A DNA stretch of 64,000 nt from Callorhinchus milii (Eukaryota). The notes beneath the pieces were generated by a model. That model was given only the letters and a program-made list of their open reading frames with translations, was not told the origin of the DNA and searched no databases. The stretch's first letter is position 1. Every line of letters starts with the position of its first letter. This document shows positions 17,001 through 52,400 of this stretch, piece after piece. The DNA lies in assembly GCF_018977255.1 (NCBI RefSeq), contig NW_024704745.1, positions 41,106,001 through 41,170,000 on the forward strand, read 5' to 3'. The position numbers and the translations under genes are program-made.

Positions 17001-20000
17001 CGAACGCGGCAGCCAATTGCGCACAGCAATGTACCACAAACAGTTGTAGATTGAAAATGACCAATTTATTATTGTTTTTGGTTTTGGAGGGATTATTATT
17101 AGGCATGTGGAGCAAGGAAACTTGCCCAAGGTTTCGCCCTGCCTGGAATTGAACTCAGGTCTCTCGCTTGCAAAGCAAGTGCTCTAACCACTGAGCTACA
17201 GGACTCCGCTTACTGCTTGGGTGAATTTTTTAAACTGAATGCACAATTGCATGTTATTGAATCTGAGTAACTTGAATGGAAATAAGGGCACAGCTTCAGA
17301 ATTGTAAAATATATAGTTTGCACAGGGTTATCACAGTAGGAACAAGTTACCACAAAGAATGAGTGATTACCAGAAAATAGCTGATGCAATTGCTTGATGC
17401 TGTAAATCGGGAGATATTGGGATTGCTATATGGTGCCTTCAATACTGGTCCTGGTTGCTCCCTCTGCTCAGCAAGCACAAGTGTGCCCCACCATCAGTGG
17501 TCAGGCATTCAGTGTATCTGCCCCATTCTATAGAATCCCATACCTTTTGCTTGCCCCTTTCTTTGCTGCATTCAAGATCCACCTCAGGAACTTTCACTTT
17601 GACTGGGCTTTCGGCCAATTTCCCACCCCTGGATCATGTGCAAACCCTAGACTTTCCAGCACATTGGACCATCCTCCCAACGTGAGGAGTTAAATAAATG
17701 TAAATTTGAAATGTATTCACTCAATTTACTGTTGTAATTAAATTGGTTGGGCTATATAATTTAAAATCTGTTTACCAAGGCAAATTACATATAAAGCCAT
17801 CTATTTAATATTACTTGCTATTTGACATGATCGATGTGTATTCTCCTCACAAATGTGTTTTGTTTAAACTCTAGGCTGCGTCAGTGCAGGACCTCATTTT
17901 AATCCCCTGGGGAAAAACCATGGTGCACCACAAGATCTAGAGAGGTATGTTGTGCACAGATGGTAATGCAAGATCTTAAATATCTCACTGATGTAGTGGC
18001 CAAGTGTTTGTCCATCAGCAAAATATGATTATAATTTACCTTAGGCTTGTGATTTGTGAAAACTTTGAAAAGCTCCTACTAACTTTCTAATCCAGTGGCA
18101 CACTACAGTTTTCTTTGCCCTTTCATCAATGTGAATGAAGAGCATTGGGATTACACCATCTAAAATTGGTGGAAAGGGCTGGATAGAAAATGTCCTGTTC
18201 TTGTTTTCCTATGTTCCTGAAAAAGGCCAAACTCAATGATCAATTCAGTATTGCTACAGTTAGCTTTGTTTTCCAAGATGAGGCACACTTTTGTCTTCCT
18301 GTATGAGTTCACTTGGGTGCTTGCTGGTGTACTGTATTCACTCAAATTACTGTACTGAACACTCCCGTGTACTGAAGACCCTTTGGCTCACTTTACTGCA
18401 CTATAATAATAATCCTTGCATTTGATATAGCGCTTTTCACGTCATCTAGATGTCTCAAAGCGCTTCACAGAATATACTGTAAAGTGAATTGACTATATAT
18501 TTGTGGGCGAAACACTGTGGATAGTAAATGTTTCTGATGCCATTTTGTCGAGGAAATAACAGTGCTATTTTCTGTGTACAATACACAGGAAGTGCCATGA
18601 GCAGTGACGCGACAACTTGGAAGTCGGACGTTTTTGTTTTGCGTATAATGTAGTGTCTAGGATATTGGACTCGGCCAATATTAAATGTTTCTATGTGATA
18701 AATTGGTATTGGACAAGTAGTTGAATAGTGTCTCACTACTCTGCTGTCATGTTGAGTCCTTCAAACCAGTTTTTATGTTGGCTCAAATTGGGCTGTACGT
18801 TTCTATTGTAATGTATTTTGTATAAATGTTATCCCTCAATCTAAATTGAATCATTTTAAAATCTTAAGACATGTAGGTGACCTGGGCAATGTTGAAGCTA
18901 ATGCAGCTGGTGTGGCCAATATTGCCATTGAGGATAAAATTATCCAACTGTCAGGCAGCAATTCCATTATTGGACGCACTCTTGTGGTAAGTATTAAGAT
19001 GAAAGGTAGCAAACGTGTTTCTATTATTCAAGAAGGGATAAACTGTGTAATATTGACCAGTGAGTTTAACATCAATTCTGAGCAAATTACTGGAATCCTA
19101 TCATTTGGGACAGATTATCTGAAGAAATGGACAAATCAGAGGGACTCGGCAAGGTTTTGTGAAAGGTAGATAATGTCTCAAAGCCTAACGTGTGTTTTTG
19201 ACAACCATTATGGTAGTAAGTAAAGCAGAATCAGGAGGTAGCATTTGATGAGCTATTTTACTAAGGCAACATTGTAACATGAAATTCACACGGATGCAGA
19301 GTGGGTCAGAGGAAGAAATAATTGAAGGACAATGAAAGTGATGCCGTTCAGATTGGTGCTGGGGCCCCAGATTGCCATGCTACCTGAAAAGGGGTTACTT
19401 CCAGGTTTGCTGCTGATCAAGATTGGAAGTTAAAAAGAAAATTAGAACATTAAGTAAGAGAACAAGTTTATGGGAGATGGGAGTTTAACATTACAAAATG
19501 TTCACTTTGGATGCAAGAACAGCAGATTGGAATATGTTCTAAATGGAAAAGAACTAAGATATGGAACCCTTAAAACTGTTAAAGGGTTCAATTACTAGAC
19601 TGTCAGTTTAACCTAGGAGCACAAGTTTGGACATTGATCTTGACCCAAATGACAAGTTTGGAGGGGCAGAAAGCGACCAAGAAAGCTAATGGAATGTTGA
19701 GCTTTATGGCGATGGATTTGGAATCTCAAAGGAAGGAAACGTTGCTTCTGTTCAGTGCATTGGTTGGACATTTGAAATATTGTATCCAGTTTTGGGTAGT
19801 CAGTCTTACTAAGGCTACACTTGTAATGTATTCATCAATGATTTACTAGATTAATACCTATGATTAAGTGGTTTTGGCGTGATGAGAAGCTGAATAAAGT
19901 TAGGTTGAAAGTCCCAAGGGCCTTTCATCCAAATCCCATTTGTGATATTTAATCCTTGTCAGACAGCTGCTAATGTATTGTAGTCATGAAATATTATATC

Positions 20001-20959
20001 AGGCTAGGTATTCAATGTAGTTCCTCTCTTCTAACAAGTGGAAATAAATGCACAGAATAAAGAGACAAGCTTATCTCTGCATCCAAAGAATAAAGATAGT
20101 GCCCCATTAAAATTAAAGCTTGAACATTCCATTTGAAAATACCTGGCCATTCCTTTGCAAATGCCCCATGTGAAATCGGCTCAATTTGGTTACTAATGAG
20201 TGCAGATCTACATTAGTTCATTCTGATGTTGCGTGTTAACTGATCTCAGAACTATAGCTCCAGGAACTAGACCAGGGAAATTTGATTAAAGTTCATGATG
20301 AATCAATCCTACGGTGGTACTGGAATAGGCACATTGACCTCTGCTTACATTTGTATACATTACTGGAACCTATTTTGAAACTACATTTGGCTACAACCTT
20401 TCCCATGTTTGAAAGAAATATAAAAGTAAGGTTTTGACTATGTACTTTGAGCCTTGATTGCAATTTTTAAAATTATGAAAATTTGAAACACAACAACTAG
20501 CATTCAAAAAAACATGTTTTGGCCATTTTCTTATTACACTTCAGAGCTTATTTTCCAGTTCCCCAATTTTGTGGTTGAACTCAACTGAATAAGTAGTGCC
20601 ATTTTTTTTCTCAACAGCCATCCTTAACGCTTCAGACTCAGTTTATATTGAAATTAAACTTTTGGTTGTTGGCTCACCATATTTGGCCCAAATTATTATT
20701 TGATGCCCTTTAATCTAAGAATTATTGAATCAGTTTTGAATCTAGGATGATTTTTTTGTAAAAAATATTATAGCAATAGTTGTAACAGCCAAGATTGTGT
20801 GTTAAGGTACAGATACTAATTTTTTTAATTTTGCTTCTGAAGGTTCATGAGAAGGATGATGACCTGGGAAAAGGTGGACACAGTGACAGTCTTACAACTG
20901 GAAATGCTGGAGGACGTTTAGCTTGTGGAGTGATTGGAATTGCCTCTGCAGAAAAGTGA
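14064..20959 (+). CDS. SOD1: Superoxide dismutase [Cu-Zn], canonical SOD1 (copy 1), 5 exons, 157 aa
   Basis: Exons 14064-14138, 16763-16856, 17875-17944, 18869-18986, 20843-20959, all GT-AG, phases 0,1,2,0. Protein [158 protein letters not shown]46, H48, H63, H71, H80, D83, H120, C57, C146 and R143 equivalents are all present. Confidence 0.97.
14335..14560. repeat. C-rich tandem repeat (CCCCCTCTGCCCCCCCCCA-like units) in SOD1 intron 1
   Basis: Repeated ctctg plus C-run units of about 19-20 nt. Confidence 0.9.
16897..17207 (-). mobile_element. tRNA-derived SINE, full length, in SOD1 intron 2
   Basis: Reverse complement of the 50045-50370 element. Confidence 0.92.
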
Positions 20960-24481: not shown

Positions 24482-27400
24482 ATGGCCAGGGCTATCTGTA
24501 TACTTTTTGGTATCCGTAATGCCTTTGGAGTCGTTCACTTCAAATCAGATGTGAGTAACAGTAAAACCAGACTTTAAACTAGACTTGGGCAGTTTGAGTT
24601 TAAATAACATTCTTCAATGATCCGCTCAACAGAACCCCTTCAGTGTTAACCAAAGGGTTTGTTTTGTACTCCCAAGTTGTGTCGTTACTGTTCTCAGTGG
24701 TGGTTAGTGAGACCCTTCATTGCATACGGTCGGAATAACTAACTACGCGTTATCTCTGTGAGCTGTGGTGCAACACCGACTACTGAGAAAAACTGCGATT
24801 GAGTTGTGGGAACACTGGCAGTAAAATGACCAGGACTCGTGTACACTGAGGAAGAGGGACCTTTCATTGGCATTGCTGTACTACATCCTCAAGATGCGTT
24901 GGTGTCACTTGTTGTCACCCTTTAGACCTCGAGGCTTGTGAGTTTATATGAAGCTGATCAATGAGAATTTTTTTTAAAAAAGGGAATATATATTCAAATA
25001 GAGACAAATCGTGTCCAGAGGAAAAAATATGTAAAAACCAGAATTCCCACACCGAGAGTTGTTATTTCTGCAATTAAAAAACTCCCATAAAAGGGAGTGG
25101 AACCAGAAAAGGGGGTGACTGGGTTGCCAACTGTCAATAAAGTTAAGTTGCTTTTTGAAGGAAGCCGTTTTTGATGTGTCAGTACAATCAACAACAAAAA
25201 AAACCATAAGGGAATAAAAAAAATTCTTCTCCCTTGAATCCCCAGTCCTAAAATATTCAAATTAATTGGCTACTTATTGATGTTTATGGGATACTGCTGG
25301 CACAGATTAACTGCTTATTTTGTCAATGTAACAACATCCACTTGATGTTCTAATCAATTATAATTAATTATTATTATTTCTGATGTGGGGAGGGTGGTCA
25401 TCTGAAAGGTTTTCTTAGAAAATCCTCAATTTTTAAAATTGTGATCACATTTAAACTGGAAACCGAGAAATACAGACACACAAAATGCCAGAGGGAAAGC
25501 AGATGAGAAAAAAGTGAGAAAACAAGAGATCAGTTTACACTTATATAGCCATAAAAGAAATATGTCAAAATGCTTTACACCATATAGATGTTAACAATAA
25601 TAATAATCCTTGCATTTGATATAGCGCTTTTCACGTCGGGAGGACGTCCCAAAGTGCTTCACAGAACACACTGTAAAGTGAATTGACTGTATATTTGTGG
25701 GCGAATGCGGCAGCCAATTGCGCACAGCAATGTCCCACAAACAGTCGTAGATTGAAAATGACCAATTTATTATTGTTTTTGATTTTGGAGGGATTATTAT
25801 TAGGTGTGTGGAGTAAGGAAACTTGCCCAAGGTTTCGCCCTCTGCCTGGAATTGAACTCAGGTCTCTCACTTGCAAAGCGAGTGCTCTAACCACTGAGCT
25901 ACAGGACTCCACAAACCTGTTGCTATTCCTTAATGTCCGGTTGGAATTACAGAGGTTCACACTCTGCAGTGTTGCTCACTTTGGTTGGATCCTGGCAGTA
26001 TGGCCACAGCATTGTCCTTGCACAAACTTGATGTCCTCAAGTCAGCTTTTCACTGTGGGAGTAGAGGAAACTGACTTAAGTCATTGTCATTGAAATGCCG
26101 AAATGCTCCAAATAGCTTTAAATAGTAATCCATTTTTAAAGCGTCACTAATTGAATAAAATGAGCAGAGTTAGTAAAGATTTTTACATGGAATTTTGATT
26201 TTGTAGATGAATGGACACATGACAGTAAAAGGAGAGTTTACTGGGCTGCCTCCTGGAAAGCATACACTTAATATTCACAGCTTTGGTGACATCACTGATG
26301 GTATGAAATTTATATCTTGTGGTTACGCAATGGGTTTGATGTTCTTTCTATGCTTGCGTGTCAATGCTTTAGCTGTAACCTACCAAATGTTTTGCAGAAA
26401 TTACAAATAACCTCCAAAGATGGCCAAAAGTATGGTCAAAGAGGCAGGTCTTGAGACAGAGCTTGGAGGAGGTGCAGGAATGGGATGAGGCGAAGGGAGT
26501 TCTAGCGAGTGGGGCAGAGATGGGAAGCAATTGGTGGAAAGAGAACATCTTGGACTAGTAGTTGAATTTGTCTTGAGGAGAAAGGAAGGGCCATGAATTT
26601 AACCTTTGACTTAAAACAAAGCCAACTTTGAAGGGATGAGCATGGAACAAGCTAAAGTAAAATGGGAGCATTTGATAGTTACAACTAACACACAGTGGAA
26701 TCTATTCAAAAAGGTAATTGTAATTTTGTTGTCGTTGTTGTAGCACATTATATAAATAGGAATGCACCCATGAAAGCAAAGATCGTGCTTCCAAGTCCCG
26801 TTGTATGTAAATGGTGAAGTGTTAGATGGTTTTTCGAGTGATATTGTGAAGTGGATTTCTGTTATGTTCAGAGATTTACATTGGCTGCACATGCTAACAA
26901 GTCAGAAAAACAGCTAAGTATTGAGGATTTAGAAAATACCACAGCAACAAGATATTACTCAGCTAAACAGCTTGTTTCCCCTATCAAAGGAGTCAAGAAG
27001 ATAACAGCAAGTTACGGGCAGACATTATGTTTGGGGAGCTGCACATGCTCAAAAGATTTTTTAAAAAATCATAGATGTCTTCTGTAAAGCAGGTATTTTG
27101 TTTAAACGGCCAAATTACTGAGACCTTTACTCCACTGGTACTGAATCATTAACATTAAGTGTGACCTGGATTGAAAATAATGCATACTTTTAAAAATTGT
27201 ACAGCACAACATTTCTGCAAATTGCTGGTGGTAGAATATGAAGCCCTCTTGGTGGAAAAAATTAATAGGTTTGTAGGGATTCTCCAATGGATCCTCTAGT
27301 CCAACCCTAGAGAATACATGTTGGGGATTGAGTAGACATCCATACCAGGCGAGGCACAATCAACTAATGGAAAATCTCATGATAACTAGACCTCCTTTGA

Positions 27401-30022
27401 GGCTGCTGGGGCATTCACCCTACTTTTCTTTTGTTTAATCAAAATATATATATTTATTTGTTGCTATATATTTACGCTTGTCCCAGATATTATCAAACCT
27501 GTTACAAAAAAGAAGACGCAACATGTTATTATCCTGTTACAGAATGCAACAGACCCGGCCCCTTGTGACGGAGGGCTTGCCTCTGCGCACTCCACTTTGG
27601 TGAAGGGACCAAGGCTTCCCTGCAGTTGCAAATGAGGTCTTGTAACCCTTCCCTATCCCTCCCCTTTTAGTGGGGAGTGTGGACAGATTCACAGCACACA
27701 GGTTGTGCACACATTTTTTTCGGACGCACCCTTAAAGACAGTCATGAATTGCCCGTGTGCACTGCCCGCACACCCTGATAAGACGCACTTACTGCTTTCG
27801 GATGGCGTCCCGATGTGCACAGTACACAACATGTTTACCCAAACACACGTCTGGAAACCTCACAAACCCATACACGAGTCCCACCCATCATCTTCTGGGG
27901 TTCTGTTCCCTTTTTCTACAGGGAGCAGTTACATGGTTGGGCTAGTCCAGGCTTTGCCATCATTTTACCGGACGGTGAGCCTTTACCTCACTCCCAGTCA
28001 CTCCCCCTTTTATGGGGGGAGGCAGACATACTACATTTATGGGACGCTCATTTGTTTACATCTCGAGCGTCCCTCTATACATTTACATGGTCCCAGATGT
28101 TTATTCACAGTTTTGGGTGCCCTTGTGAATGCACCCTGATGTCTCCTTCTCACTGGTAGGGACCCCGGCGTGGGGGATGTGATGCCACTGTGGGGGCAGC
28201 TAGCACAGGAGTGGCCCTGGCTGGGGTCAAGCATGTCCCTCAGTATGTAGTCCTTGATCCTAGTGTGCGTGAGCCTGAGGCAGGCCCTCTCCGTCCCTCG
28301 TTCTGCCTGAAGACCACCAGGTTTCGGGAGTGCCAAAGTGCCTCCTTTACAGAGTTGATAATCCTCCAGGCACACTTGCTGTGGATTTTGCTGGTGCCCA
28401 GGAAGAGGCTGAGGGCAGCGCTGACTGGCCCAGACCTCAACTATGCATGAAAGCCATGAGGGGAAGGCCCTTTTTATCACCAACCAACCTGATGGTTGTT
28501 GGTCAGGGCCGGTGACGAGGCATTCTGCCACATGTCACCACAGTCACCACAGGATAACTCCTGATCGGGTTGGCCCTCTCCCCCTTACTGTTTCAACTAC
28601 TTGCCGCGTGGATCACTCGGTGATTGCGTGGGGGTCTGGAATGGTGTTCTTCATAAATTTCTCTACACATGATAGGTGTTTTGCCACACTCCAACTGCGA
28701 GGAACGTTTTGAGGCAGTCCTGCCAGACACGCCCTTCTCAGCACCAGGTACAGGTAGAAGCCCAGCACATAGTGGCATTTGTTGCTGGCGTAGAGGGGCT
28801 CTAGGCACAGCCTCAGGCAGCCACACACAAAGGTGGCCATGAGGATCAGGGCTACGTTAGGGACATCTTCCCCCCTGTGCTCCTTGCTAGTACTGTTTAA
28901 TTTTTTCTACTGTTCCTGGTCCTTTTAACTTCTTTAGGGTGAAAGATGTCAGTACTGATAGCTGCCATTAACTGCCAGCAAATATATTTTTTTGTGTATC
29001 CTCTGTGAAGTCAGTCTGGAGATAGCAAATAACTCTCTGCCACCCAGCATGGATTCTTTTTTGTTGATCTGTTTTTAAGTAATGTAATCTAGTGTTCTGG
29101 ACTTCTCAAAAAAAAAAGTTAATGTTATTTGTTTAAGGTTGGGTCAGTGCAGGATCTCATTTCAACCCCAATAAAAAAACAGTTTTGCTACAAGGTGTAC
29201 TACAAGAAAGCAACATGTGAGTATTGGATTTTAATGTGCTTTCGATCTCGCTGCTTCACCCGTCCTTCACCCTCCCTGAACCCCAGTTCAGGTCCGTAAC
29301 TCTTGTCCAGTTCTTTGGGACATCCTCCCAACGTGAAAGGCGCTATTCAAATGTAATTTTGTTATTGTTGTAATGTTAATAAAAAGAATAAAAAGTCCTT
29401 GAATATTTTTTAACAATGATTCCAGACACAAAACATTTTTTATTCTCTGTAGCCCTCAAGGTGACCTTGGGAACATTGATGTTAATGAAGATGGTTTGGC
29501 CAAGTTTGAATTTAATGCTTGCAATTTCAGCCTGTCAGGAATTAATTCTGTTATTGGACGCTCTCTGGTGGTAAGAATCATTACTTCAGGATATGTGTAC
29601 CCCCACTTTTGTGTGCTCTTCTGAGCAAACTTTTCTGGGCATTGGAAAATGTTCTCTAATATACAAAAATAAACATCTAAAATACATTTTAATTGAGATG
29701 CATTTAAAACTGCAAATAGTGGTTACTGTTTCCTCTATATTCTTCTTCTCATTTTTGTAAAACTTTCATTTAACAGTTTTTGAAGTTAATTTATTCATCA
29801 CTTGGTAGCCAGGTCCTGTTAATCTTTATCATATAATTTTAAATAATTCCATACCAATAGCAGAACTGGGTAATGGCATGTCTTTCCTTTTTAAAGATTC
29901 ACAAGATTGAAGATGACCCAGCTAAAGCCTCAAATGAGAAGTACAAAACTGGAAATTTCAGCACAAGTTTAGCTTGGGGAGTGATTGGAATTTGTCAGAA
30001 CAATATTTCACAGGAAGACTAA
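24482..30022 (+). CDS. SOD1-like paralog (copy 2), highly diverged, 5 exons, 161 aa, predicted catalytically inactive
   Basis: Exons 24482-24550, 26207-26300, 29138-29216 (79 nt, +9 in frame), 29453-29570, 29897-30022, all GT-AG, no stops. Protein MARAICILFGIRNAFGVVHFKSDMNGHMTVKGEFTGLPPGKHTLNIHSFGDITDGWVSAGSHFNPNKKTVLLQGVLQESNIPQGDLGNIDVNEDGLAKFEFNACNFSLSGINSVIGRSLVIHKIEDDPAKASNEKYKTGNFSTSLAWGVIGICQNNISQED. AATAAA at 30295-30300. Confidence 0.9.
25595..25910 (-). mobile_element. tRNA-derived SINE, full length, in intron 1 of copy 2
   Basis: Same family as 50045-50370. Confidence 0.92.
27430..28850 (-). mobile_element. L1/Tx1-like LINE 3' fragment in intron 2 of copy 2
   Basis: Minus-strand fragments CAWRIINSVKEALWHSRNLVVF and CHYVLGFYL..VEKFMKNT resemble a Tx1-type ORF2 C-terminus (recalled similarity, not searched). 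Confidence 0.6.
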
Positions 30023-31280: not shown

Positions 31281-31674
31281 ATGGTGGTGAAGGCGGTTTG
31301 TGTGCTGAAGGACGAAAGCCATTTCCAACGCCAGTTCCCTCCCGGCGCTGGAGACACAACTCCCGGTGTTGCTGGAGTCGTCCANNNNNNNNNNNNNNNN
31401 NNNNNNNNNNNNNNNNNNNNNNNNNNNNNNNNNNNNNNNNNNNNNNNNNNNNNNNNNNNNNNNNNNNNNNNNNNNNNNNNNNNNNNNNNNNNNNNNNNNN
31501 NNNNNNNNNNNNNNNNNNNNNNNNNNNNNNNNNNNNNNNNNCTGAGTGTTTAGTTGGGATGGATGTGCTGTGTGAGCGTCACTCCCCCCCCACTCCCCCC
31601 CCCCCCACTAACTGACTCCAGATTTAAACCGCCGGGGGTTCTGCTGTGTGTCAGCGGTCACGGTGACCCCTCTC

Positions 31675-31705
<31 letters not shown>

Positions 31706-34700
31706 GGGGTTTGCAAACCTGCAATTAAATGGCTCAATTTTTAACTCCGGTCTCCGTGGGGCGGGGAGGGGGTTTCTCTCGAAAAATAAATCCTTTTTTT
31801 TTGAATGACTCCATTTTAACGACGGCTCTGTCGCATTATTCGAATAACCGTTTTTTTTTTTGGGGGGGGGGGTGGGGGGGGGGTCGACAGAGCAGAACCC
31901 ACACCGCTTCTTCTGGCTAAGATTTCTCCTTATTGAGCAGGAATTACCAGAACATGTTCAGGTTTGTTCCCACACAACTCCCCGGTCCCTTCTCCTCACT
32001 GGAAACCATTGACCACTCCCCACTGACTCTGACAAACCTCCCTTTTTTTGCCCCTCTCTCCCCCTTCACACACACACACACAGGTCCACATAAACTATCC
32101 AGTTGTTGCCCATCGCCATGTTCTGCTTTCCTCTCCCAGGTGCTGAAGCATGTCTGCCTGTCAATTCACTCTTTCCTCTCCCAACGCTCCCAGTGTGAAT
32201 TCCTTCAGTCAAGCTTCCACCCACCCACAGCACTGAGAGGTTTGGTCAAAATGGCATCCTCCCTGTCCGTAAGCGGTAGTCAGAGCGCTCCTCGCTCTTT
32301 CTGCTGCCTTTGACACTCATCCTCCATATAAAGATAAAAGTTCACCCCTAACCTTGATGTTTGCCGACCTGTGTCTAAGACTCACGAGTCAGACATCCAA
32401 TTTGACCAAAACAAATGTCCACCAATGTTTCTAGCACATTCGCTGCTTGGCAACTTATAACATGATTGAAATCTAAATTTAACGCATTATTATCACTCCA
32501 TTCTTAGCTCTTGGGAATGTCGTCCGCAGACATGGGGTACACACCCAACTCTTATTTTTCCACCTCACTTTGTGACCCCCCAGTCCCCTGATGTTCTGTC
32601 AGTCTGCCTGTCAGACCTCAGGGGTTGGATAAGCGTGAATTTCCTTCAGCTGAACGTTGACAAGACGGAAGCCATACTCTTTGGCTCTCGTCAATGTCTT
32701 AAATCACATGGTTCTCACCTCCTCCACCTATCCGACCTCCCACTAAAACTCTCTGAATCCGTACTCAACCTAGGGGTCAGGTTCGACCCCCAATTGTCCT
32801 TCCTCCCCCCCCATCTGGTCCCTCAACAGCACCGCTTTCTTCCACCTCCGATGCATCGCCCGTCTCCGCCAATACCTCACCCCAAAAGCCGCCGAAATCC
32901 TGGTCCATGCCTTTGTCACCTCTCGGCTGGACTATTCAAATGCCCTCCTCGCCGGTCTCCCCTCCACTACCATTCATAAAATCCAGGTCATAATAATAAT
33001 AATAATAATCCTTGCATTTGATATAGCGCTTTTCACGTCGGGAGGACGTCCCAAAGCGCTTCACAGAACACACTGTAAAGTGAATTGACTGTATATTTGT
33101 GGGCGAACGCGGCAGCCAATTGCGCACAGCAATGTCCCACAAACAGTCGTAGATTGAAAATGACCAATTTTATTATTGTTTTTTTTTTGTTTTTTTGGAG
33201 GGATTATTATTAGGCGTGTGGAGTAAGGAAACTTGCCCAAGGTTTCGCCCTGCCTGGAATTGAACTCAGGTCTCTCGCTTGCAAAGCGAGTGCTCTAACC
33301 ATTGAGCTACAGGACTCATACAAAACTCTGCCGCCTGCATTCTTACCCACACCAAACTCCGCTCCCCGATTACCCCAGTCCTTGCCAGACTGCACTGGCT
33401 GCCTGTCCCAGAGAGGATCGATTTTAAGATCCTCACTCTTGCCTTCAAATCCCTCCACTCCTCTGCACGGCCCTACCTCTCTGATCTCCTCTCCCCACAC
33501 AGCAGTGCATGTTGCCTTCGCTCCACCAGGTCTGACCTCCTCTTTGTCCCCCGAATCCTCCACTCCACCATCGGCGGCCGGGTCTTCAGCCACTACGCCC
33601 TGAGACTCTGGAACTCCGTTCCTCACTCCCTTCGCCTCACCCCCTTTCTCCCTACTTTCAAGTCTCGGCTGAAGACCTTTCTTTTCAACCGCGCTTTTGG
33701 TCACCTTCTTCCCCCTCCCCCTGGCTCGGCCCCAGGATCCGTTACTGTGAAGCTCTCTGAGACGCCGTCCGGCGTGGAGGGCGCTATATGAATCCAAGTT
33801 GTTGTTTTGACTAGTTTTCTAAATGAAAATTAAATATGTTCATGGAGAATTAACTTTATAATGTATGGTGCTAACTCAAAAGAACACCATATCTAACCAC
33901 TTCTACGAGGCCACTTCTGTATGAAACTATTATCTTGCAGGAAAATGAGCCAGTGTTAATAAAAGGAAACATTTCTGGATTAGCTCCTGGAAAGCATGGG
34001 CTTCATGTTTGCACCTTTGGAAACCTTTTAAATGGTATGTAATATACACCTGTTTCATAAAAATATTCCATTACTATCTTACTGTCAATTTCAGTTCATT
34101 CCTGATTTTTCAATTTCCTAAGACAAATTGGTTTAGTTAGCATTGCATTTAGAGTAATAAGATATGCAAAAAAGTTTCATTTTCTCCTTTGAGTGCTCCA
34201 CATTTTAAGTTCTCTGATAAATGCAGGATGTCATCACATTTCCATCGCCTTGGGATGTGCTGCCGACGTGAAAAGCTCTATACCCATGTGATTTTGTACT
34301 GTATTGTAACAGTTTAAGATGGGAATTTTTCAGTGGGAAAAGCAGCAGGCAGCTCTTGTAGTGTTTTTTTTAACCAGGATGACTATGGTAAGTAATTTGA
34401 CATTTTAAATTTAGCTTACCTCAAAATAGACTCCAAGTCATATTCACTCCCAAGGCAGTAAATGGTCTAATTCCACCTGGAGCACTGTCTGCAATCCCTG
34501 TCATTGTATTAGAGTAAAAGATATCTTAATATTAGAGGAAATACACTGAGAAGCAAGTAGATTAATAGCTGTGTGTGGGCATAAATTATTGGGAGAATCT
34601 AGATAGAAGCGAAGACTCAGGGAGATCTTATTGAAATATTCAAGATCCAAAAGGCCATTTTTTAAAAAATCTTTGTGGCCAGCCAGATAATAATAATAAT

Positions 34701-37360
34701 CCTTGCATTTGATATAGCACTTTTCACATCTTCTAGATATCTCAAAGCATTTCACAGAATAAACTGTAAAGTCAATTGACTGTATATTTGTGGATGAAAC
34801 ATGCACAGCAGTGTCCCACAAACAGTCGTGGATTGAAGTGACCAATTTTATTATTTTTTTTCTTGAGGGTTTATTATCAGTCATGTGGAGTAAGGAAACT
34901 TGCCCAAAGTTTTGCTTGTGAGGCGAGTGCTCTAACCACTGAGCTACAGGTCTTCCACAGATACAAAAGATAGTCTTTTCCTACACATTATTTATGTAAT
35001 TTTGGTAAACAAAAGAATGGCTAGCCCTTTGTGTTGGACAAACCAGATGCTTAATGTCTTATTTCTCTTCGGAAACTTCTTTGTTGTTTTCCTGAATGCA
35101 AAGGAAATATTTCATAATATAATTGTTTCCAGGTCACTTCAGTTTAGGATCACATTTCAATCCATATGAGAAAAAACACGGAGGACCAGAAGATGAAGAA
35201 AGGTGAGTTTTGGATGTATAGATGGTCCAAGTAGGAACCATCATAAAAATAACAACAACAAACAACAACAACTTGGATTTATATGGCGGCCTTCACTCGG
35301 GGCATCATGGGGTAATGTCTTGGAGTGCTTAATAGTTGTGGAGTTTGACGGTAGGCCAGTTTGAGAAGGGGGTAACTATAGGCACGATGGAAGAGGAAAG
35401 TCTTTAGGTGTCATCTGGAGATGGATAAAGAGGGAGCAAGTGAAGGGATTGAGAAAAAAATAACCTTTTTGTTAATTAAAGTTGTGACCCAACATTAGAA
35501 ATATAGTCAATCAATTGCCAGTTCTTGCCAGGCTCCACTGGCTTACAACCACTGAATGGTTTGATTTCAAGATCCTCACAAATGTCTTCAAATCCTTTCA
35601 TGCCCTGACACCTTCCTACCTCGCCTACCTGCTTATTCCCCAATCTGTTGCCTTGGCTAGAATGCCTCTGTCCTCCTGCTTGCCCTACTATTGTACGGCT
35701 CTGAGATGCTACCCTGCATGAGGGGCACTATATAAATGCAAGTTATTGTTGAATTATGTCGACCATTTTTTAGTCTGCCAGGCTTTTACGCCTTGACAAG
35801 CGAGACATCTGGGTTCAATTCCAGGCAGGGCTAAACCTTGGGCAAGTTTCCTTACACCACACGCCTAATAATAATCCCTCCAAAACAAAAAAAATAATAA
35901 ATTGGTCATTTTCAATCCACGACTGTTTGTGGGACACTGCTGTGTGCAATTGGCTGCCACCTTTCGCCCACAAATATACAGTTAATTCACTTTATAGCAT
36001 ATTCTGTGAAGTGTTTTGAGACATCTAGAAGATGTGAAAAGCGCGATATAAAATGCAAGGATTATTATTATTATATTTTATAGAACCCCAGAGCCAAAAT
36101 ATTTTGGAATTTAAAGTGTTACAAAATGTTACTTCCTGATGTAATGATATATTTCTATAAATTTAGACATTTGGGTGCCAGTTAGACAGAAATTGGATAT
36201 TTTAATATTTAGTTCACTCCCACTGGTACTGATATCTGGTTAAACCTCAGTAGCAGGTCTTATTGGTGTCCTGCAGCTCAGTGGTTAGAGCATTCGCCCC
36301 GCAAGTGAGAGGACCTCGGTTCGACTCCCAGGCAGGGCAAAAAGTTGCGCAAGTTTTGTTACTCCACACACCTCTGTTTACCTTGCAGTACGTAGGTATC
36401 CGATCGTTTGTCAATTGCGGATCAATTTTCTGGGGGTAATATTCATTTAAAAAAAGAATAATAATTTGTCAGTCAATATACGACCTTTTGTGGGACACTG
36501 TTGTGCGCAATTGGGTCCCGGGTTTCACCCATAAAATATACAGTCAATTCACTTTACAGTATATTCTGTGAAGTGCTTTGAGATGGCTCGAAGACATGAT
36601 AAGGCAATATATCAAATACAATTATTATTATTATATATTTGCTACAATTTTACTATGTAATAAAACATTCAACAAGTAAACTTTGGTGTCTTATTATTTT
36701 TAATCTGCTGTAGGCACGTAGGAGACCTGGGAAATGTGATAGCTAACAAAGAAGGTGTGGCAGAGTTTCAAATACAAGATCGACTTCTCCAACTTTCCGG
36801 AGTTTTGTCCATTATTGGACGTTCTCTGGTGGTAGGTACTAAAAGTCTGCCATTTGCTCAGTAACAACAATGGTAGCGTATTGTACTTTCAACTGCAGGA
36901 TACTGCAGTTCAAATTGTGTGGAACTGCGTAGATTCTAGAAATTGCTGGGGTACTGAGGGGTTGTCTAATGCCCCTGTGATCAGTATTGAGATTTGTTCC
37001 TCCTGGCTGTTCTTTTAAACATTATTTAAAACATCTTTTAAATAATGGAAATACAAATTATTAATATAATAAATAATTGTAAATAATGTCAAATACAAAT
37101 TTGACCTACTAGAATAATTCTGTTTTAATTTTAATTAACTATATTAATATATGTGCTTGTGTAAAGATAGAAGACTATCAAGTAAATGATGAATACAAAT
37201 GTCTAGATCACTGACACTGTTTTACTTTGTAAAGATTGAGGAAAAAGAAGATGACTTGGGAAAAGCTGGAAATGAAGAAAGCCTTCTAACAGGGAATTCT
37301 GGAAAAGGTTTAGCCTGTGGAGTGATTGGTATAGCTGATGTTGTTATGAATTTAACTTGA
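31281..37360 (+). CDS. SOD1-like paralog (copy 3), 5 exons, exon 1 truncated by an assembly gap
   Basis: Exon 1 31281->31384 ([34 protein letters not shown]..., donor presumably in the N gap). Exons 33941-34034, 35133-35202, 36714-36831, 37235-37360 encode [141 protein letters not shown] at 37663 and 37680. Confidence 0.88.
31385..31541. other. Assembly gap (157 N)
   Basis: Run of N. Confidence 1.
32505..33806 (+). mobile_element. L2 3' portion in intron 1 of copy 3
   Basis: [33 protein letters not shown] and an L2 tail. Confidence 0.88.
32990..33317 (-). mobile_element. tRNA-derived SINE nested in an L2
   Basis: Same family. The L2 sequence ATCCAGGTCATA|CAAAACTCTG resumes on both sides. 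Confidence 0.92.
34687..34950 (-). mobile_element. tRNA-derived SINE, internally deleted
   Basis: Head, core and tail are all recognisable. Confidence 0.85.
35775..36633 (+). mobile_element. Two tRNA-derived SINE copies (about 35775-36075 and 36267-36633)
   Basis: Same head, core and tail motifs. Confidence 0.85.
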
Positions 37361-41060: not shown

Positions 41061-44000
41061 ATGATAGCCACCGGGAAGTGTGTCCTCCACCAGAGCTCCG
41101 ACAGCACCGGTGTGAGCGGCGTATCGGGAACCGTGATTTTCGAGTGGGACGTAAGTAACAGTACCGGCGGCGTTGCCGGTAAACACACGGCCGCACCTCA
41201 CTCACTCACAATGTCGTCGCTCTCGAAATTACCGCCTAAACTCAAGAGCCGCGGTTGGAAGCGCACGGCGGTGGGTGTTGACGCCGCGCGAGCGCTTCCA
41301 TTGACGCACGAGAAATAAACCCGAGCAGCGACCCGCCGCGGCCACGGTAACGACTGGCCGTTGTGAAGCTGTGGCTGCCATCAGGGGGAGCCGTCGATGG
41401 CAGTTTGTTTTAACACCAAAGAGAGACTGTGTTTGTGCCTCGAAGGACCTGCGGGTGTGTGTCCGAGTGAGAGTTACGGCTGTACGTCATCCCGCATCCC
41501 GAGCAGCCGTACACCGCCCTCCCGCACCTCCTCATAACCGTCATGGCCGCCGCGACCTCCCCCACTGCGGGAGGCCAGGACACGGCCCCATGTTGTGGCA
41601 GGGACCAAAGATTGCGGGGCGTAATTGTGGAGGATCAGTTTGGTCACTCACTCCGTGACTGTTTGTGGGGCACTGCTGTGCGCAATTGGCTGCCACGTCC
41701 AGCCCACAATATACACAGTCACTCCACTGTACAGTATGTTCTGTGAAGCGCTTTGAGACGTGATGAGACGTTGTATCAAATGCAAGGACTATTATTATCA
41801 GTTGGGCCAAAGGGGCCATCTTCACTCAAACTGATTTTGTGGTCAGCCTGCACAAGAACAACAACAACAACAGCATTTACATAGCGCCCTCCATGCCAGG
41901 CGGCGTCCCAGAGCGCTAAACAATGATGGAGCCCGATGCCGAGCCAGCGGGAGGGGGAGAGGGAAGGTGACCACAGGCAAGGGCAAAGACGGAGGTCTTC
42001 AGGCGCAAACTGAAAATGGGGAAAGAGGGGGCAAGGCGAAGGGATTGAGGGAGGGAGTTCCATAGCTTCGGGCTGTAGTGACTTGTAGTGTCTGAAGGCA
42101 TGGTGGAGCGGAGGATTCGAGGGACAAGGAGGAGGCCGGAGCTAGTAGAGCGGAGGCAACGGGTAGGGCTGTGAGGATAGAGGAGGTTGGAGAGATAGGG
42201 GTGCCAAGGCGTGAAGGGATTTAAACACTAGAGTGAGGATCTTGAACTCAATCCACTCTGTGACAAGGAGCCAATGGAGGTCACAAGAGAAATTGACATG
42301 AATAAGGAAGGTAGGTCACTGTAGCCCATCTGATCTCATTCTTCCAGAACATCCACTTGAATGTCAACAACAACTTACATTTATTATAGCACCCTTCACG
42401 TGGGATAGTATCTTGGAGCCCTTAACAGTGGTGGAGCTTAACTCCGGCCTTGCATCAACAGCATTCAGCTTTTTTAAAAAAACAAGTTCAGTCTCCTGGC
42501 CTCAACCTGTTCCTGGCCGATACTCCTCCAGATAAAATTGCTTGTTTCCTTTCATGGCTGTTTGTGGGACATTGTTGTGTAAAGATTGGTTGCTGTGTTC
42601 GCCTACAAATACATTGCCTACACTTTACAGTAAAATCCTGTGAATTGTTTTGAGGTGTTTTGACGCTGTATTAAGGCACTAATATCAAATGGAAGAATGA
42701 TTTTTATTAATCTCTGGGTAAATAATAATTCCTGTCATTTGCCATTTGCAACATTGAACCTGTGTCTTCTTGTGTCCTCGGTTTAACATCTCACCTGAAA
42801 GACATCACCTCCAACAATGTAGCCGCCCGCAGCTCGTATCGACAGTCCTATTTCACGTAGACATCATTTTCTGTAAAATAACAAAACATAAACTATTTAT
42901 TTGTTCACCTTCCCTTTTCTGTACTCGAGTCCGTATCCCTTTGGTTTAGATTTTTTTGACCATGTTACATGACAAGTTATAAAGGTTTGATTTAACTCTT
43001 TTTTACCAAACTTTTTAGGAAACTGAAGAAGTGTTAATAAAAGGAACCATTAGCGGCTTGTCTCCTGGAAAGCATGGCCTTCATGTTTGCTCCTTTGGAA
43101 ACATTACTGATGGTATACTTCAATCTTGTGTTTCCAAATAACAGATCTTGTTTGATAATCAACAACTATAATTACAGTATATGAATCTTACCTAAAATAT
43201 GAACTAATCTGAATTTTTAGTTATAGTTAAATGAATTACTGGATTTGATTGGATTTTTCAAAGTAATCTTTGTTAACATGCAAGAAATTATGAACTGTTA
43301 AGCAGATAACCCAGGGGTCTCAAATGGCTTTAATGTCGATAAATATAATGTCATGCATATCAGAACAGGCGATGCATATCTCCTGTAGCTTTGAAGTCCT
43401 GTAGCTTATTGGTTAGAGCACTCGCCTCGCAAGCGAGAGGACCTGGATTTGATTCCCAGTCAGGACGAAACATTGGGCAAGTTTCCTTATTCCACACGCC
43501 TCTGTTTCATCTAGCAGTAAGTAGGAACCCGGTTGTTAGTTGAATGGCAGATGGATTTTCTGGGGGTAATAATTCCTGACTTAAAAAAAAAATTTGGTAA
43601 CTCAATCCACGACTGTTTGTGGGACACTGCTGGGTGCGATTTGCTTTTGCCACAAAAGACCTTCCTTTTCGACCGTGTCTCCGGTCATTTCTGCTCGACG
43701 TCAGGCTCCGCCACTGTCAAGCACTCTAGGATCCTACCTTGGGTGAGGGGTGCTATATAAATGCAAGTTGTTGTGAAAGCATGGTGTGTCAGATGCCTGA
43801 CTAACCCCCCAAAAAGTGTATGGATTTTTTTTGAAGCATCATGATTGCTCCCTTCAATGTCTGAAATGTGGTACTGCAGCCTATTGGACCATGGGTGGTT
43901 GCTTGGAACAAAATGAGATACAGTAATTGGCTCATCAAGCCCACTCCTTGTTCAGATCATGCATGAATGTTATTATAATCTACAACCCACTCACTATTAT

Positions 44001-47000
44001 CTTTGGGAGATATTCTGTATAGAAAATCCTCAATCACCAAAGGTGAAGCAAAAACTCCCAATATTCATCATCTCCACTGCTTCTCATATATACACCTCCT
44101 GTCCCATAATCCTGATTTCTTGTTCCCATTTTCTTCATAAATATATGCAATGTCATTGTTGAACAGAATCACATCATTATGGTGACTCCCTATATGGACA
44201 ATTATTATTTTATGCACTCAACTGTTAGGTAGGTTGAGGATAGCTCTAGTTGTGCTGAGTACTTTTACTTCCCTATTTGCATATTTTGGAAATGTTAGAA
44301 TTACGTACTCTATAATTGCATACTGTTTTGTTTCTCTTTATATTACTGGAAAAAATGATAAGGTCCATTATTTTTATCTCTTAGGTTATTTCCATTCAGG
44401 AGATCATTATAACCCATGTGATAAAAAACATGGTGGACCACAAGATGAAGAGAGGTGAGATTTAGATTTAATTATGGTATTTTAAGCGTTAAACACCTTG
44501 ACGAGCAAATTTAAGATTTGTTTACCTCTCTGTCTTAGAACAATACTATAAATCTGCAAAATAATATTGGTAAATGCAGTCAAATGAAAATTCTTTCACA
44601 ACAACAAAATTACATTCGTATATCGCCTTTCACGTCAGGACAGACAGCGTTTTCACTATATGAAATTGAAAATTTGTTCAACTGCATTTGGTGATGAATA
44701 AAGACGTGGATACATTTCATTAATTATTCAGGGTATTTAAGTAAATGAGTTTTCCAAGTAAATCTTTTTTCCCCCAGATTGGCCATGGGGACTTTAATTT
44801 TCTGTTTTCCCAGCACCAGAAGAGATGTATAGGGTATATTGTGTGGGAGCTGGAAATAGGGCAAACTTGATGGCCCCTGGGCCTTTTTGCTCTTTTTAGT
44901 TATGTATGCAGCAAATATGTGTGCATGTATCTTTCTGTTGTTTCTTAATCTGAAAGTGTTTTTATTTAAATAATTTTAGAACCAATTTCTCCAGTGCCGG
45001 AGCTATTTCCAGCAGAGGCATGATACCCAAAATTGTCTCCTGTGCTGTAAATCTTCTGTGATTGCTATGAAATTAATTCCATCATTAATGCCATCAAAAC
45101 TGGGCCCAATGGAGAAAATTTGCATGTATTTTTGCTCAATAAATTTGGCTCCTTGTACGCTTTGGAGACAATTACTGTGTCAATTACTATGGTTCAAGCA
45201 GATCTGCACTTGTAATATATTCCCACCAGCCAGAAACATACATTTTCAGAAGAGAAGGATGTAATTTAGCCTATTCCGTCTACCACAATGTGTATTGTGT
45301 TTTTGGTTTGTTGGATGTCTGACACAAGCAGGAACCCATCATTGTACTTAAGGTATCCAAGTTCTATGCATCCCACCTACACATAGAAATGCTTGTGTAT
45401 TGGAATGGAATCACACTGTCTCCCTTGGAAGATCGCATCCTTCTTACCTAATTCCAGAGAGTATAAGACCCAGGCTGGCAAACTACAATATTGCCACCTT
45501 GTTACAAATTTCACAACTAGCTGAGATTTACCTCTTTTGAGGTCCCCCTGCTTAGTCTGTAATCTAATTCCTTAAACTCTTTTTTTAAATATGAATCCTC
45601 TTTTCTATATTATTGGTTGCAGAATAAACTGCAGAGATGAATGTCAGTGTTTGTTTTCCTGTCCTATACTTTTGTTTTAATTTTCAATATCTTGTAAAAA
45701 TTATTGATTACGGCAACAGTGATTGATAACCTTCTGATTGGGTATATTGAAAGTATTGGAATAGTATAAATCTTTATCCCCAGTATCTGATTTTTAATCT
45801 GAGGACATATCCATATTTACAACATAACTTCAACAACATACAGCAAAATTTGCAGAGCACTCTTGTTTATGTCTAGTTTTATGAATTTATTATAACTCTT
45901 TTTAATCTACTCTAGACATGTAGGTGACCTTGGAAATGTGGAAGCGAGTGATTCAGGTGTGGCTGAGTTTCAAATGCATGATCGACTACTCCGTCTGGCA
46001 GGAAATTATTCAGTAATTGGACGTACTTTGGTGGTAAATATTGTGTTCCAGCAGCCACAATTCATTAAATGTCAGACTCCTAACAAGATGATTGCCCATG
46101 CAAAAATCTTAGTCTGGATTGTTTTTTTCAAATTGAATGTTTAGGTCTTACTAGTTTTTAGTTTTTAGGTCTTACTAGCTGAATGTTTTGCTGGGATAGA
46201 TTTTCTTTTCAGATGCCAGGACCAATTTCTGGGAATAGTACACAATCAAACTATTTAACTCTCATCCAGTTTTCCATAATATACTTCAGTGTATTTATCC
46301 CTAAATCTAATAATTGACTGTATAATCATGACATTTTGGATGGTTAATAGCCAATAACCTTAACACGAAGTTAGAGGGAGTATTTGAGTTACCAGCAGGC
46401 AGGACTGGCACAAAGTGTTCAGCGAAGCCAACAACAACTTATATAGAGACCCTCATGCAGGATAGCATTTATATTGAGACCCTCATGCAGGATAGCATCC
46501 CAAAGCCAACCTCGTATCAAATACACTTACTTGATTGCTGATCTCAATGCACACATCTTGGAGATTAAGTCATAGCCTGAGACAATTTGCTACAGACACA
46601 AATGCTACAATTTGTATCTGTATTTGCTTACAAATACACAGTTCTCCATTTCACAGTAATTCCTATGAAGCGCTTTGTGACATTCTTCCGATGTGTGCAA
46701 TTCACCCACAAAATATACAGTCAATTCACTTTACAGTGTATTCTGTGAAGCGCTTTGAGACATGTCAAAAACGTGATAAGTAGCTATATCAAATGAAAGG
46801 ATTATAATTATTCAGCTCAACGTGCGCAAAACTGAGGCCCTCCTGATTGGCTCGCGTCAGCGCCTCCGCACCTCAGGCGCTGACAGCATCAGCATCCAGG
46901 GCTGCACTCTCCACCTCTCAAAGCCAATCAGGGACCTCTGCGTTCTGTTCGACCCTGAGCTGTCCTTTCTTCCTCATATCCGCGCCACAACTGGCACCGC

Positions 47001-48788
47001 CTTCCATCACCACCGAAACATCGCCAGACTACGGCACTACCTCATCCCTCACGCTGCTGAAACTCTGGTCCACGCCTTTATCACCTCAAGGCTGGAGTAT
47101 GGGAACTCTCTCCTCGCCGGCCTTCCCTCCACAAGCTGCAGGTCATTCAGAACTCTGCAGCTCGTGTACTGTCCCGCACCAGGCTTCGCGACCACATCAC
47201 TTCCACCCTCGCTCGCCTCCACTGGCTCCCCATCCCCCAGAGGATCGAATTCAAGATCCTCATCCTCACCTACAAGGCCATTCACGGCTTTGCTCCCTCC
47301 TACCTCTCCGACCTACTATCCCCCTACCTACCTGCCCGTACCCTCTGTTCCTCTGGTTCCGGTCTGCTCCACATCCCCCGCCCCAACCGCCCTACCATCG
47401 GTGGCCGGGCCTTCAGCCTCTGAGCCCCGAGGCTCTGGAACTCCATCCCCCAGTGCCTTCGCCGCCTCCTCCCTTTCCTCCTTCAAGGCCAGTCTCAAGA
47501 CCTTTCTCTTTGACCGTGCCTTCAGCTCCCCTCTCGACTCTCTCTCTATCCCCTCCTCGCTCCCTCCCTTCCCTCCCCTCACCCTGACCATTTCCCCCCT
47601 GCTCGGGTACCGACCCAACTGTACAGCGCCTTGGGACGTCCTCCCGACGTGAAAGGCGCTCTATAAATGGAATCTTGTTGTTATAACAATCCTGAATAAT
47701 TTTCAATTAGGTGGATTGATGAGAGGTTTGATTTTTGAACTACCTGTAGGTTCTTGTTCCACCAGCTGGAGTGGTAGTTTCTTACACACATTTTTACTAA
47801 AAATATTTCTGTAGCATTTCCGATTCTCTTGTCCTTATTTTCAAGAAATTAATCTTATGTTGCTGATTCATATTTGTACATATTTTGTACAAAACTTATT
47901 TGAATCCAAATTTTCTAAACTATATCTGAAGTACCTTTATCCAGCTCTGTCGTGGTACTCCCTTCTAAAGAGAGAAAGATTCCAGAACAAAGGTAGGTGT
48001 GTGCTAGGTTTTGGCTCACATATCAAGGTTTGCTGATTTAGTGTCCGAGAAGATCCAATCTTTCATCAGAGCTCTATTCCTTAAATTCTATTTTGTTGAA
48101 CAATAAGACATTATCAATAGGGTAAAACTAACCTGTCTCACGGCGGACTAACCCCAGCTCATGTTCACTATTAGTCACTGAAGTAATAACCTGCCACTGG
48201 ACTTCCTACTACAATTGAACATCGATTTTGAATTAGGAAGATCAAAACCAATGCTCAAATGTGGTTCCACTACATCCACATTGAATTTTGAAACTGCCAG
48301 GGATGTTACACTCTTAACTGTATATTCCAACATTTTGCTTTTTTTTATAACTATTTCAGAATTAGTGACCATCCGACTAATACCTTAAGCTCTCCCTTCT
48401 GTTGTGCTACCATTAGGATATTTCCATTCTGTATATAGACCACACTACCCTTTCTTCTCCATAATCTCATACATTTTCATTCTTTGTATTAAACTATATC
48501 TACCACCTTTATGTCCATATATCCAGAAAGCCTAGAAGGCTCCAATAGATATCCTTATTTTAGTAACCACTTAAAACTCTTGTGTTGATAGTTAAAGCTA
48601 CAAGTGCTGATATCTTTGTTTTACATTTGTTAAAGGTGACTGAAAACGAAGATGACTTGGGCAAAGGTGGAGATGAACAGAGCCTTACAACAGGAAATGC
48701 TGGAAAAGGTTTAGCTTGGGGAATAATTGGAATAGTTAGTGAATTTTGCCCAGCAAGTGAAGATTTAACACAAAAATCTAAAGAATGA
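41061..48788 (+). CDS. SOD1-like paralog (copy 4), 5 exons, 174 aa
   Basis: Exons 41061-41150, 43019-43112, 44385-44454, 45916-46033, 48636-48788, all GT-AG. Protein [174 protein letters not shown]. Confidence 0.92.
41857..42280 (-). mobile_element. L2 3' fragment in intron 1 of copy 4
   Basis: [27 protein letters not shown], with a (CAA)n tail on the plus strand. Confidence 0.85.
46812..47682 (+). mobile_element. L2 3' portion, young subfamily, in intron 4 of copy 4
   Basis: [34 protein letters not shown]. Closely similar to 56932-57805. Confidence 0.92.
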
Positions 48789-51600: not shown

Positions 51601-52400
51601 CGCCTCAGCCCGTGTGTGAAGTCACGAGGGCCGGTCTCCCGCCCCGCAAGAGTTGACACTGCGCGTGCGCGCGCCTTTACACGGCTCTGCGCGGTCGGTG
51701 GCTGTCGCCTCGTCGGGCGGTTCGCGGTCGTGAAATTGGGGAATTATGACGACTACGAAGGCCGTGTGTTTGCTGAGGGGTCACTCCTCCGTGGTCGGGA
51801 CGTGTACTTTCAAAGCAATTGTGAGTCAGGCCACGACTGTTAACAGTCATAGTAATGCCCGGGGCTGGGCGGGGGCTTCGTGTCCATAACGGAGATGGAC
51901 GCGGAGGGCAGACACGTGGCCCTTCGTTTGTTTCACTTGAAGCGCATGTGTTTGTAGCGCAAGAGCCGCCATCTTCCTAACTCCCGGTGTGTGTGTGTGT
52001 GTGGGGTGTGGGTGTGGTTCTCCTGCACGTTCCAGCTTCTTGCACGGAATCTCCCCAACTTGCCTTTTTTAAAAAAAAAGTCGGATTTTTTTTTCAGCGA
52101 AAACGTTTTGCATTGAACGCGCGGTTACACGGCGTATTGATGAGCTGCGGCCGACACCGCCAGGTCGGGTTTTAACTGACCTCAATGGTACAGTGTGTGG
52201 TGTGGTGTGTGTGTGTGTGTGTTGAACGTTGTGCACTGTTGTTCACTGCTCGAGCTCCTGTGTCGGGAGGAGCCGCCGCTTCAGAGGCCGTTATAACCGT
52301 TGATGTGAACCCGCGCGCCCGCGGCCTGGTTTTAACGGCCACCGTGGCGGGGGTTGGAGCCCGCGCCGCTCGGGCCAACCCGGTCTTTATATCACCACCG
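51590..52400 (+). promoter_or_regulatory. CpG island around exon 1 of paralog copy 5
   Basis: CpG-dense, with GC boxes (CCCGCC), an NRF1-like GCGCGTGCGC at 51661 and several YAACKG motifs in intron 1. Confidence 0.65.

Follow-up and report, generated by a model that had tools for sequence, protein, structure and literature searches.

Here we describe a tandem array of five SOD1-type genes in the chimaera Callorhinchus milii and focus on the third of them (hereafter copy 3). The array lies on the forward strand of contig NW_024704745.1 (RefSeq assembly GCF_018977255.1), within the 64-kb stretch of DNA analysed here (hereafter the window; contig positions 41,106,001 to 41,170,000, with coordinates below counted from its first base), and each gene comprises five exons with GT-AG introns. 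In a Pfam search of the whole genome, every superoxide dismutase (SOD) match on this contig fell inside the window, and no sixth SOD1 copy was found in the 10 kb upstream or the 20 kb downstream of it. SOD1 is single-copy in most vertebrates, and it is usually treated as one gene. Copy 1 (14064..20959) is a canonical SOD1 with all metal ligands, Arg143 and both disulfide cysteines. Copy 3, as judged from its sequence, is very probably a dead enzyme whose zinc site is under selection.

The readable part of copy 3 exon 1 (31281..31382) holds the start codon, strand 1 and the start of a long insertion; its translation equals the first 34 residues of P0004, a 174-residue C. milii protein named "superoxide dismutase [Cu-Zn]", and where the exon ends could not be read from the window. 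Exon 2 (33941..34034) encodes His43, His46, Cys48 and Phe50-Gly51, and the GDNT motif at positions 51-54 is replaced by GNLL. Exon 3 (35133..35202) encodes His57 in place of cysteine and the zinc ligands His63 and His71, and exon 4 (36714..36831) the zinc ligands His80 and Asp83 and the interface residue Gly114. Exon 5 (37235..37360), 100% identical to P0004, encodes Glu120, Asp124, Lys142, Gly143, Cys146, Gly150-Ile151 and the stop codon. Residue numbers come from aligning exon 5 with solved SOD1 chains (query 1-34 = 119-152) and from a 154-residue rodent SOD1. The residues named in a preliminary description of this DNA were all confirmed in a single open frame, their codons starting at 34004 (His46), 34010 (Cys48, TGC), 35135 (His57), 35153 (His63), 35177 (His71), 36715 (His80), 36724 (Asp83), 37238 (Glu120, GAG), 37304 (Lys142) and 37307 (Gly143); the zinc site, which it had called intact, is so by sequence. 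Three features add to that description: exon 1, whose insertion of about 15 residues lies between strands 1 and 2; the replacement of GDNT; and the presence of Cys146 (37316) though its disulfide partner Cys57 is lost. The protein matches the eight-stranded barrel domain PF00080 at 144 bits (cut-off 28.9), its sole Pfam domain over 174 residues, shares 61% of its residues with copy 1 over exons 2-5 and has a net charge of -9, versus -3 for copy 1.

Exons 2-5 are joined exactly, with all introns skipped and 0 other letters, in contigs of runs X1 (380 nucleotides) and X2 (498 nucleotides), which come from two studies; the X2 contig also covers exon 1 and joins it to exon 2. Both runs are presumed RNA, and none of the listed runs holding the sequence is recorded as RNA. 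An assembly error behind the copy 3 changes is ruled out by the identity of these contigs over exons 2-5. Runs X3 and X4 gave unspliced pieces, and the nine substitutions in X4 are all outside the copy 3 coding exons. Copy 1 gave spliced contigs in all four runs compared. In runs X8, X10 and X11, copy 1 was spliced and no copy 3 piece was among those listed, with slight depth over exon 5 in X10; missing contigs do not show absence, and this pattern is no evidence for tissue restriction.

The shark and ray proteins matched by P0004 fell into three classes: canonical SOD1, a 171-residue group that has the long insertion too, and a group resembling copy 4 (41061..48788, protein P0017), the sister paralogue of copy 3 in the window, which has His46, Cys48, Tyr57, Thr120, Gly143, Trp146 and an intact zinc site. 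The copy-3 type is represented by 16 sequences from 16 species, including 15 sharks and rays, and the copy-4 type by 14 sequences, with 13 shark and ray species carrying it with Tyr46 and Thr120. Left out of the counts were same-gene isoforms (P0032, P0044, P0133, P0140, P0141, P0144, P0145, P0149 and P0152-P0155) and part-models (P0299, P0300, P0303, P0306, P0315, P0322, P0427 and P0428); P0012 was split into copy-3 and copy-4 halves and P0142 was trimmed to exons 1-4. In the tree, copies 3 and 4 occupy one branch (support 96/94), separate from canonical SOD1 of both cartilaginous and bony vertebrates. The C. milii copy 4 clusters with its shark and ray counterparts (100/99), and the duplication thus predates the chimaera-shark split of about 400 million years ago.

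Copy 3 of the window is likely orthologous to the 171-residue group. The strongest apparent link is the shared insertion, which is 15 residues long in C. milii copy 3, 14 in its relatives and 2-7 in copy 4, and is present in 15 of the 16 copy-3 sequences, the sixteenth having another modelled start. At 26 diagnostic sites, window copy 3 is copy-3-like at 13, many of which are ancestral states, copy-4-like at 4 and neither at 9. A joint clade with the 171-residue group appeared in 28% and 21% of bootstrap trees and was not rejected by the approximately unbiased test (p 0.28). The catshark and sawshark gene models P0012, P0140, P0141, P0306 and P0427 join copy-3 to copy-4 exons, which implies a gene order there like that of the window; the joined models are due either to faulty annotation or to read-through transcripts, which would yield a protein of two domains. 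A second chimaera was absent from the 120 listed of 3333 matches, the 120 listed of 139 short matches (top identity 73%) and the best 150 representatives.

The family has changed in a restricted set of places. A set of 21 canonical SOD1s shares 58 invariant positions. All 13 full-length copy-3 sequences retain 43 of these, a further five persist in 8-12 of the 13, and ten are lost in 12 or 13 of them (His48, Asp52, Asn53, Thr54, Cys57, Ala60, His120, Gly141, Arg143 and Cys146). On this comparison the losses are selective: copper ligands, Arg143, the disulfide and the motif read by the copper chaperone CCS go, and the zinc site, fold and dimer face stay. Arg143, which guides superoxide in SOD1 (PMC6383938), is Gly in 14 of 14 copy-3 sequences, and GNLL or GNLF stands at positions 51-54 in all 16. 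All 30 copy-3 and copy-4 sequences, including all 16 of copy 3, retain the zinc ligands, and Asp124 is present in 28 of 28. On the dimer face, Phe50, Gly51, Ile113 and Gly114 are kept in 16 of 16 copy-3 sequences, and Val148, Ile149, Gly150 and Ile151 in 14 of 14. At the disulfide positions, shark and ray copy 3 has Tyr57 (15 of 15) and Trp146 (13 of 13) and C. milii has His57 and Cys146; Trp146 is also present in window copies 2, 4 and 5, and Cys146 of copy 3 is therefore probably a one-base reversal.

Within sharks and rays, copy 3 exceeds SOD1 in core identity in all four species pairs compared (0.83 against 0.78, 0.85 against 0.84, 0.87 against 0.76 and 0.92 against 0.82); between the chimaera and sharks or rays it is 0.69 for copy 3 and 0.73 for SOD1. 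The ratio of non-synonymous to synonymous substitution rates (dN/dS) for copy 3 against the four other window copies, all paralogue pairs, is 0.35-0.54, and the net charge of copy-3 sequences ranges from -9 to -12. On these measures, at least two probably zinc-only twins of SOD1 are kept across the cartilaginous fishes, under what appears to be selection as strong as that on the enzyme.

The preliminary description had proposed a metal site re-specified as His46/Cys48/His63/Glu120. Among the likely orthologues some of these residues are constant and one is not: His46 and Cys48 are each present in all 16 copy-3 sequences, and position 120, in the 14 with exon 5, is Glu in one, Arg in seven and Gln in six (Gln also in a fifteenth, from the sevengill shark), so Glu120 is not a family trait. 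It is private to C. milii among the sequences compared and could be fixed within chimaeras; Arg and Gln in the relatives rule it out as a conserved ligand. Glu120 would instead be a residue that fills the vacated copper pocket in this lineage without binding metal. In copy 4, position 120 is Thr in 14 of 14 sequences, His46 has become Tyr in 13 of 14, and Cys48 survives in 8 sequences, the other 6 having Ser or Leu. Since 75 of the 128 core columns (59%) do not vary between 13 copy-3 sequences, the invariance of Cys48 is by itself weak evidence for a function.

An AlphaFold model of copy 3 (54-row alignment) has a predicted local distance difference test score (pLDDT) of 89.9, low only at the insertion (63-67) and the tail, and matches dog SOD1 with a template modelling score of 0.97 and a root mean squared deviation of 1.2 Å. 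A fold search of the ESM Atlas returned only SOD clusters and a CCS cluster. Modelled together with copy 1, its likely dimer partner, copy 3 forms the canonical dimer with a score of 0.94 (best of three controls, 0.00), a contact agreement between runs of at least 97% and a partner pLDDT of at least 87; the mark for this score was reached by 51 of 78 solved pairs and 2 of 108 mismatched pairs. In the model, the insertion and the lost disulfide leave the dimer face unblocked. SOD1 dimers are already solved, and such a pass therefore shows likeness, not binding.

We tentatively propose, with a confidence that falls a little short of even, that copy 3 is a zinc-only pseudoenzyme that works through its SOD1-type dimer face, the simplest case being that it partners SOD1 itself. 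Copy 3 very probably lacks dismutase activity, as we infer from the loss of two copper ligands and Arg143 and from the more acidic protein, and each subunit very probably binds one zinc. It would fold without CCS or a disulfide, Tyr57 and Trp146 of the shark and ray proteins likely packing in the disulfide space. Copy 3 would then pair with true SOD1 or with itself, and mixed dimers would have one active site each, which is the weak step of the proposal. Such mixed dimers would damp SOD1 output, or would keep immature, disulfide-free SOD1 folded in expressing tissues. In human SOD1, His46 and His120 tolerate substitution as far as abundance is concerned (bioRxiv 10.64898/2026.07.15.738613).

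Several observations weigh against this proposal. Human H48Q is stable and pairs poorly with wild-type SOD1 (bioRxiv 10.64898/2026.07.15.738613), and disulfide-free human SOD1 dimerises weakly, at 51 µM (PMC6383938). A copper-site mutant of human SOD1 holds zinc poorly without CCS (PMC6018003), so that stable zinc binding by copy 3 is something we infer. The invariance of His46 and Cys48 would also be expected of a second metal site or a thiol site. In the tree, window copy 3 sits at the base of the copy 3/4 branch and joins the 171-residue group in 21-28% of bootstrap trees, and complex modelling cannot tell which family member binds. The fullest version of the idea, in which a copper-free SOD1 subunit has been kept since before the chimaera-shark split, folds free of disulfide and CCS, enters mixed SOD1 dimers as a regulator or folding partner and carries a soft-metal or thiol switch at His46/Cys48/His63, is unlikely to hold as a whole.

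The constant residues at the copper site, the surviving part of the earlier proposal, could have a use of their own. A three-ligand site of His46, Cys48 and His63 might hold Cu(I) or a second zinc, or present a reactive thiol, and copy 3 would then buffer or sense metal or oxidant, with Glu120 possibly adding a fourth ligand in chimaeras only. Such a site would account for His46 and Cys48 throughout copy 3 and for Cys48 in 8 of the 14 copy-4 sequences, and without Arg143 and His120 the pocket would be more open. The change from His48 to Cys48 takes two base changes (CAT to TGC). When the best 150 of 9714 distant representatives were scanned for the motif, Cys48 occurred in 3 domains, all of copy-4 type, versus 238 with His/His, and in none outside the cartilaginous fishes. 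However, 59% of core columns are invariant anyway, Arg120 in seven of 14 sequences would bring positive charge into the pocket, and copy 4 loses both His46 and Cys48 to the extent given above. His46 hydrogen-bonds Asp124 in SOD1 and could be kept for that bond, and in a solved yeast H48C mutant Cys48 is reportedly not a copper ligand. We consider a three-ligand function unlikely.

Copy 3, as a homodimer or as a copy 3/copy 4 pair, could also make the SOD fold a scaffold for a new partner other than SOD, presenting its acidic surface and the 14-15-residue insertion, in the way that a dead SOD fold serves recognition in oyster dominin. The insertion is kept in 15 of 16 sequences, ten derived columns are fixed, the charge stays between -9 and -12, and copies 3 and 4 are retained together, adjacent in catshark and sawshark by the read-through models. 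The insertion sequence, however, is very different in chimaera and sharks and is modelled at a pLDDT of only 63-67, and the partner is putative; a scaffold role is distinctly unlikely.

The preliminary description also raised the possibility of a convergent protein resembling domain II of CCS, which the residues do not support: copy 3 has Cys48, no disulfide and the SOD1-type Gly150/Ile151 (14 of 14). In human CCS the disulfide and three of the copper histidines remain, Asp stands in for the fourth ligand, and D200H makes it an enzyme (PMC13017621); its dimer face has Ala231/Arg232 where SOD1 has Gly150/Ile151 (PMC6383938). A related statement, that mutants of His48 form complexes with CCS, agrees with published data on H46R/H48Q variants (PMC6018003). 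In a different role, copy 3, like the pseudo-SODs of leporipoxviruses, would permanently mimic immature, copper-free and disulfide-free SOD1, bind CCS as a decoy and slow SOD1 activation. CCS binds only disulfide-free SOD1, with H46R/H48Q/C146S bound at 34-134 nM (PMC6018003), and copy 3 can never close the disulfide and keeps Gly51, Gly114, Gly150 and Ile151. The viral proteins provide a precedent (PMC7605207), and the CCS mutation R104A does not block complex formation (PMC6383938). CCS recognises SOD1, however, via Gly51-Asp52-Asn53-Thr54, a GDXT motif that makes many CCS contacts (PMC6383938); a decoy should retain it, and it is replaced by GNLL or GNLF in 16 of 16 copy-3 sequences. No CCS, moreover, was found in the C. 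milii genome: PF00403 matched only two multi-domain clusters, PF00080 at an E-value of 10 gave no CCS-like exon, and three patterns built on CCS motifs gave 0, 2 (repeat-like) and 0 matches, a search that a gene with short exons could escape. True absence of CCS from this genome would change the reading of the SOD1 array. We regard the decoy as improbable; on its residues, copy 3 is a SOD1 descendant that resembles neither CCS nor an ideal CCS client.

A pseudogene is ruled out by the unbroken frame, the spliced contigs, the dN/dS below 1 against the other window copies and the conserved relatives, and a functionless decaying duplicate, for which the loss of every catalytic feature and the slightly lower identity to shark and ray relatives (0.69, under 0.73 for SOD1) might speak, is extremely improbable: the frame has neither stop nor frameshift, two studies yielded spliced contigs, the losses are selective, and relatives in 15 shark and ray species are better conserved than SOD1. 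This agrees with the suggestion of the preliminary description that copy 3 is not decaying.

The remaining copies of the array also depart from SOD1. Copy 2 (24482..30022) is the most diverged, with Asn46, Trp57, Gln71, Pro80, Ser143 and Trp146, and its frame is intact though copper and zinc ligands are both lost (Asn46, Gln71, Pro80); it has a three-residue insertion in the zinc loop and the longest branch of the tree, and no spliced contig of it was among the pieces listed for four runs. Copy 4 is altered on the dimer face at positions 5, 7, 50 and 148, which may mean another partner. Copy 5 (51746..60882) keeps all seven metal ligands and Cys57 and has Gly143 and Trp146; on these residues, copy 5 could still bind copper while having little activity, and it may show the first step of the series. 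Upstream of the array, a GC-rich tandem repeat of about 1.9 kb (11813-13671) ends about 400 bases before the start of copy 1, and a proline-rich open frame on the minus strand (about 6200-7000) lies tail to tail with the array; this frame is presumably the last exon of SCAF4, the usual SOD1 neighbour.

Elsewhere in the genome, the gene of the extracellular SOD3 type has also expanded (G000:C1:43550632-43630086; L001-L007, L011 and L033), into eight intact-looking single-exon frames and one broken frame. On visual inspection, L001 alone retains the copper histidines together with Arg143; position 120 is Arg in L004 and Ser in L006, and degeneration is far advanced in L007 and L033. Dead SOD folds have thus arisen here by a parallel drift. 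A 748-residue open frame with three weak SOD-domain matches (G000:C7:4388313-4389638; L008, L015 and L016) is likely a CSRP gene.

No description of these SOD1 paralogues was found in the literature covered, which mostly excludes subscription journals, and a search with six accession numbers returned 0 papers. The accessible text of a catshark semen proteome names one SOD, not assignable to a copy (PMC11083954), and that of a 2026 review of SOD derivatives names, as eukaryotic families, only CCS, Cu-only SODs and CSRP (PMC13017621). Dead SOD folds as such are already known (CCS domain II, poxviral decoys, dominin and tardigrade copies), and the genes described here are in databases under an enzyme name; what the His/Cys/His/Glu proposal leads to instead is an old, conserved vertebrate family of pseudo-SOD1s. 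Databases label copy-3 and copy-4 proteins "superoxide dismutase [Cu-Zn]" or "-like", and shark antioxidant gene counts and SOD peptides may therefore include dead enzymes. A copper-free SOD1 subunit in mixed dimers would, if true, be the first vertebrate cytosolic pseudo-SOD1 in the literature covered, and a naturally evolved way of coping with the lack of copper and disulfide that makes human SOD1 misfold. The proteins are small and easily expressed, which makes a conserved non-catalytic SOD1 role via the dimer face testable. It likewise makes testable which of the changes (Tyr57/Trp146, Leu or Phe at position 54, the insertion) keep SOD1 folded in the copper-free, disulfide-free state that is linked to misfolding in SOD1-associated amyotrophic lateral sclerosis.

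Among known systems, copy 3 is close to vertebrate SOD1 (PF00080), with which it shares the five exons, fold, zinc ligands, Asp124, electrostatic loop length and dimer face, and from which it differs by H48C, H120E, R143G, C57H, the change of GDNT to GNLL, the 15-residue insertion and greater acidity. Domain II of human CCS and copy 3 have in common a SOD fold, a zinc site, no working copper site and, in C. milii, an acidic residue at position 120. CCS, however, fuses this domain to domains I and III (PMC13017621) and has Ala231/Arg232 (PMC6383938), whereas copy 3 is a lone SOD1-derived domain without the Atx1-like domain I or the CXC domain III, and its relatives have no acidic residue at position 120. 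The leporipoxvirus pseudo-SODs (myxoma and Shope fibroma virus) are, like copy 3, lone, dead intracellular homologues of SOD1 (PMC7605207); they are viral and have been shown to sequester CCS (PMC7605207), whereas copy 3 is a host gene that has lost the motif read by CCS. Oyster dominin (PMC13017621) and tardigrade RvSOD15 and its kin (PMC11313143) are likewise animal SOD duplicates without copper ligands; dominin is extracellular, whereas copy 3 begins at the SOD1 start, without a leader, and derives from the vertebrate cytosolic SOD1 locus. Cu-only SODs and CSRP show the opposite pattern, being secreted and keeping the copper site while losing the zinc site and the long loop VII. The human SOD1 trap mutants (H46R/H48Q, C57A/C146A and C146S) are, like copy 3, copper-free and disulfide-free with an intact zinc site, but they are engineered or disease variants, whereas copy 3 is natural, long conserved and equipped with compensating changes.

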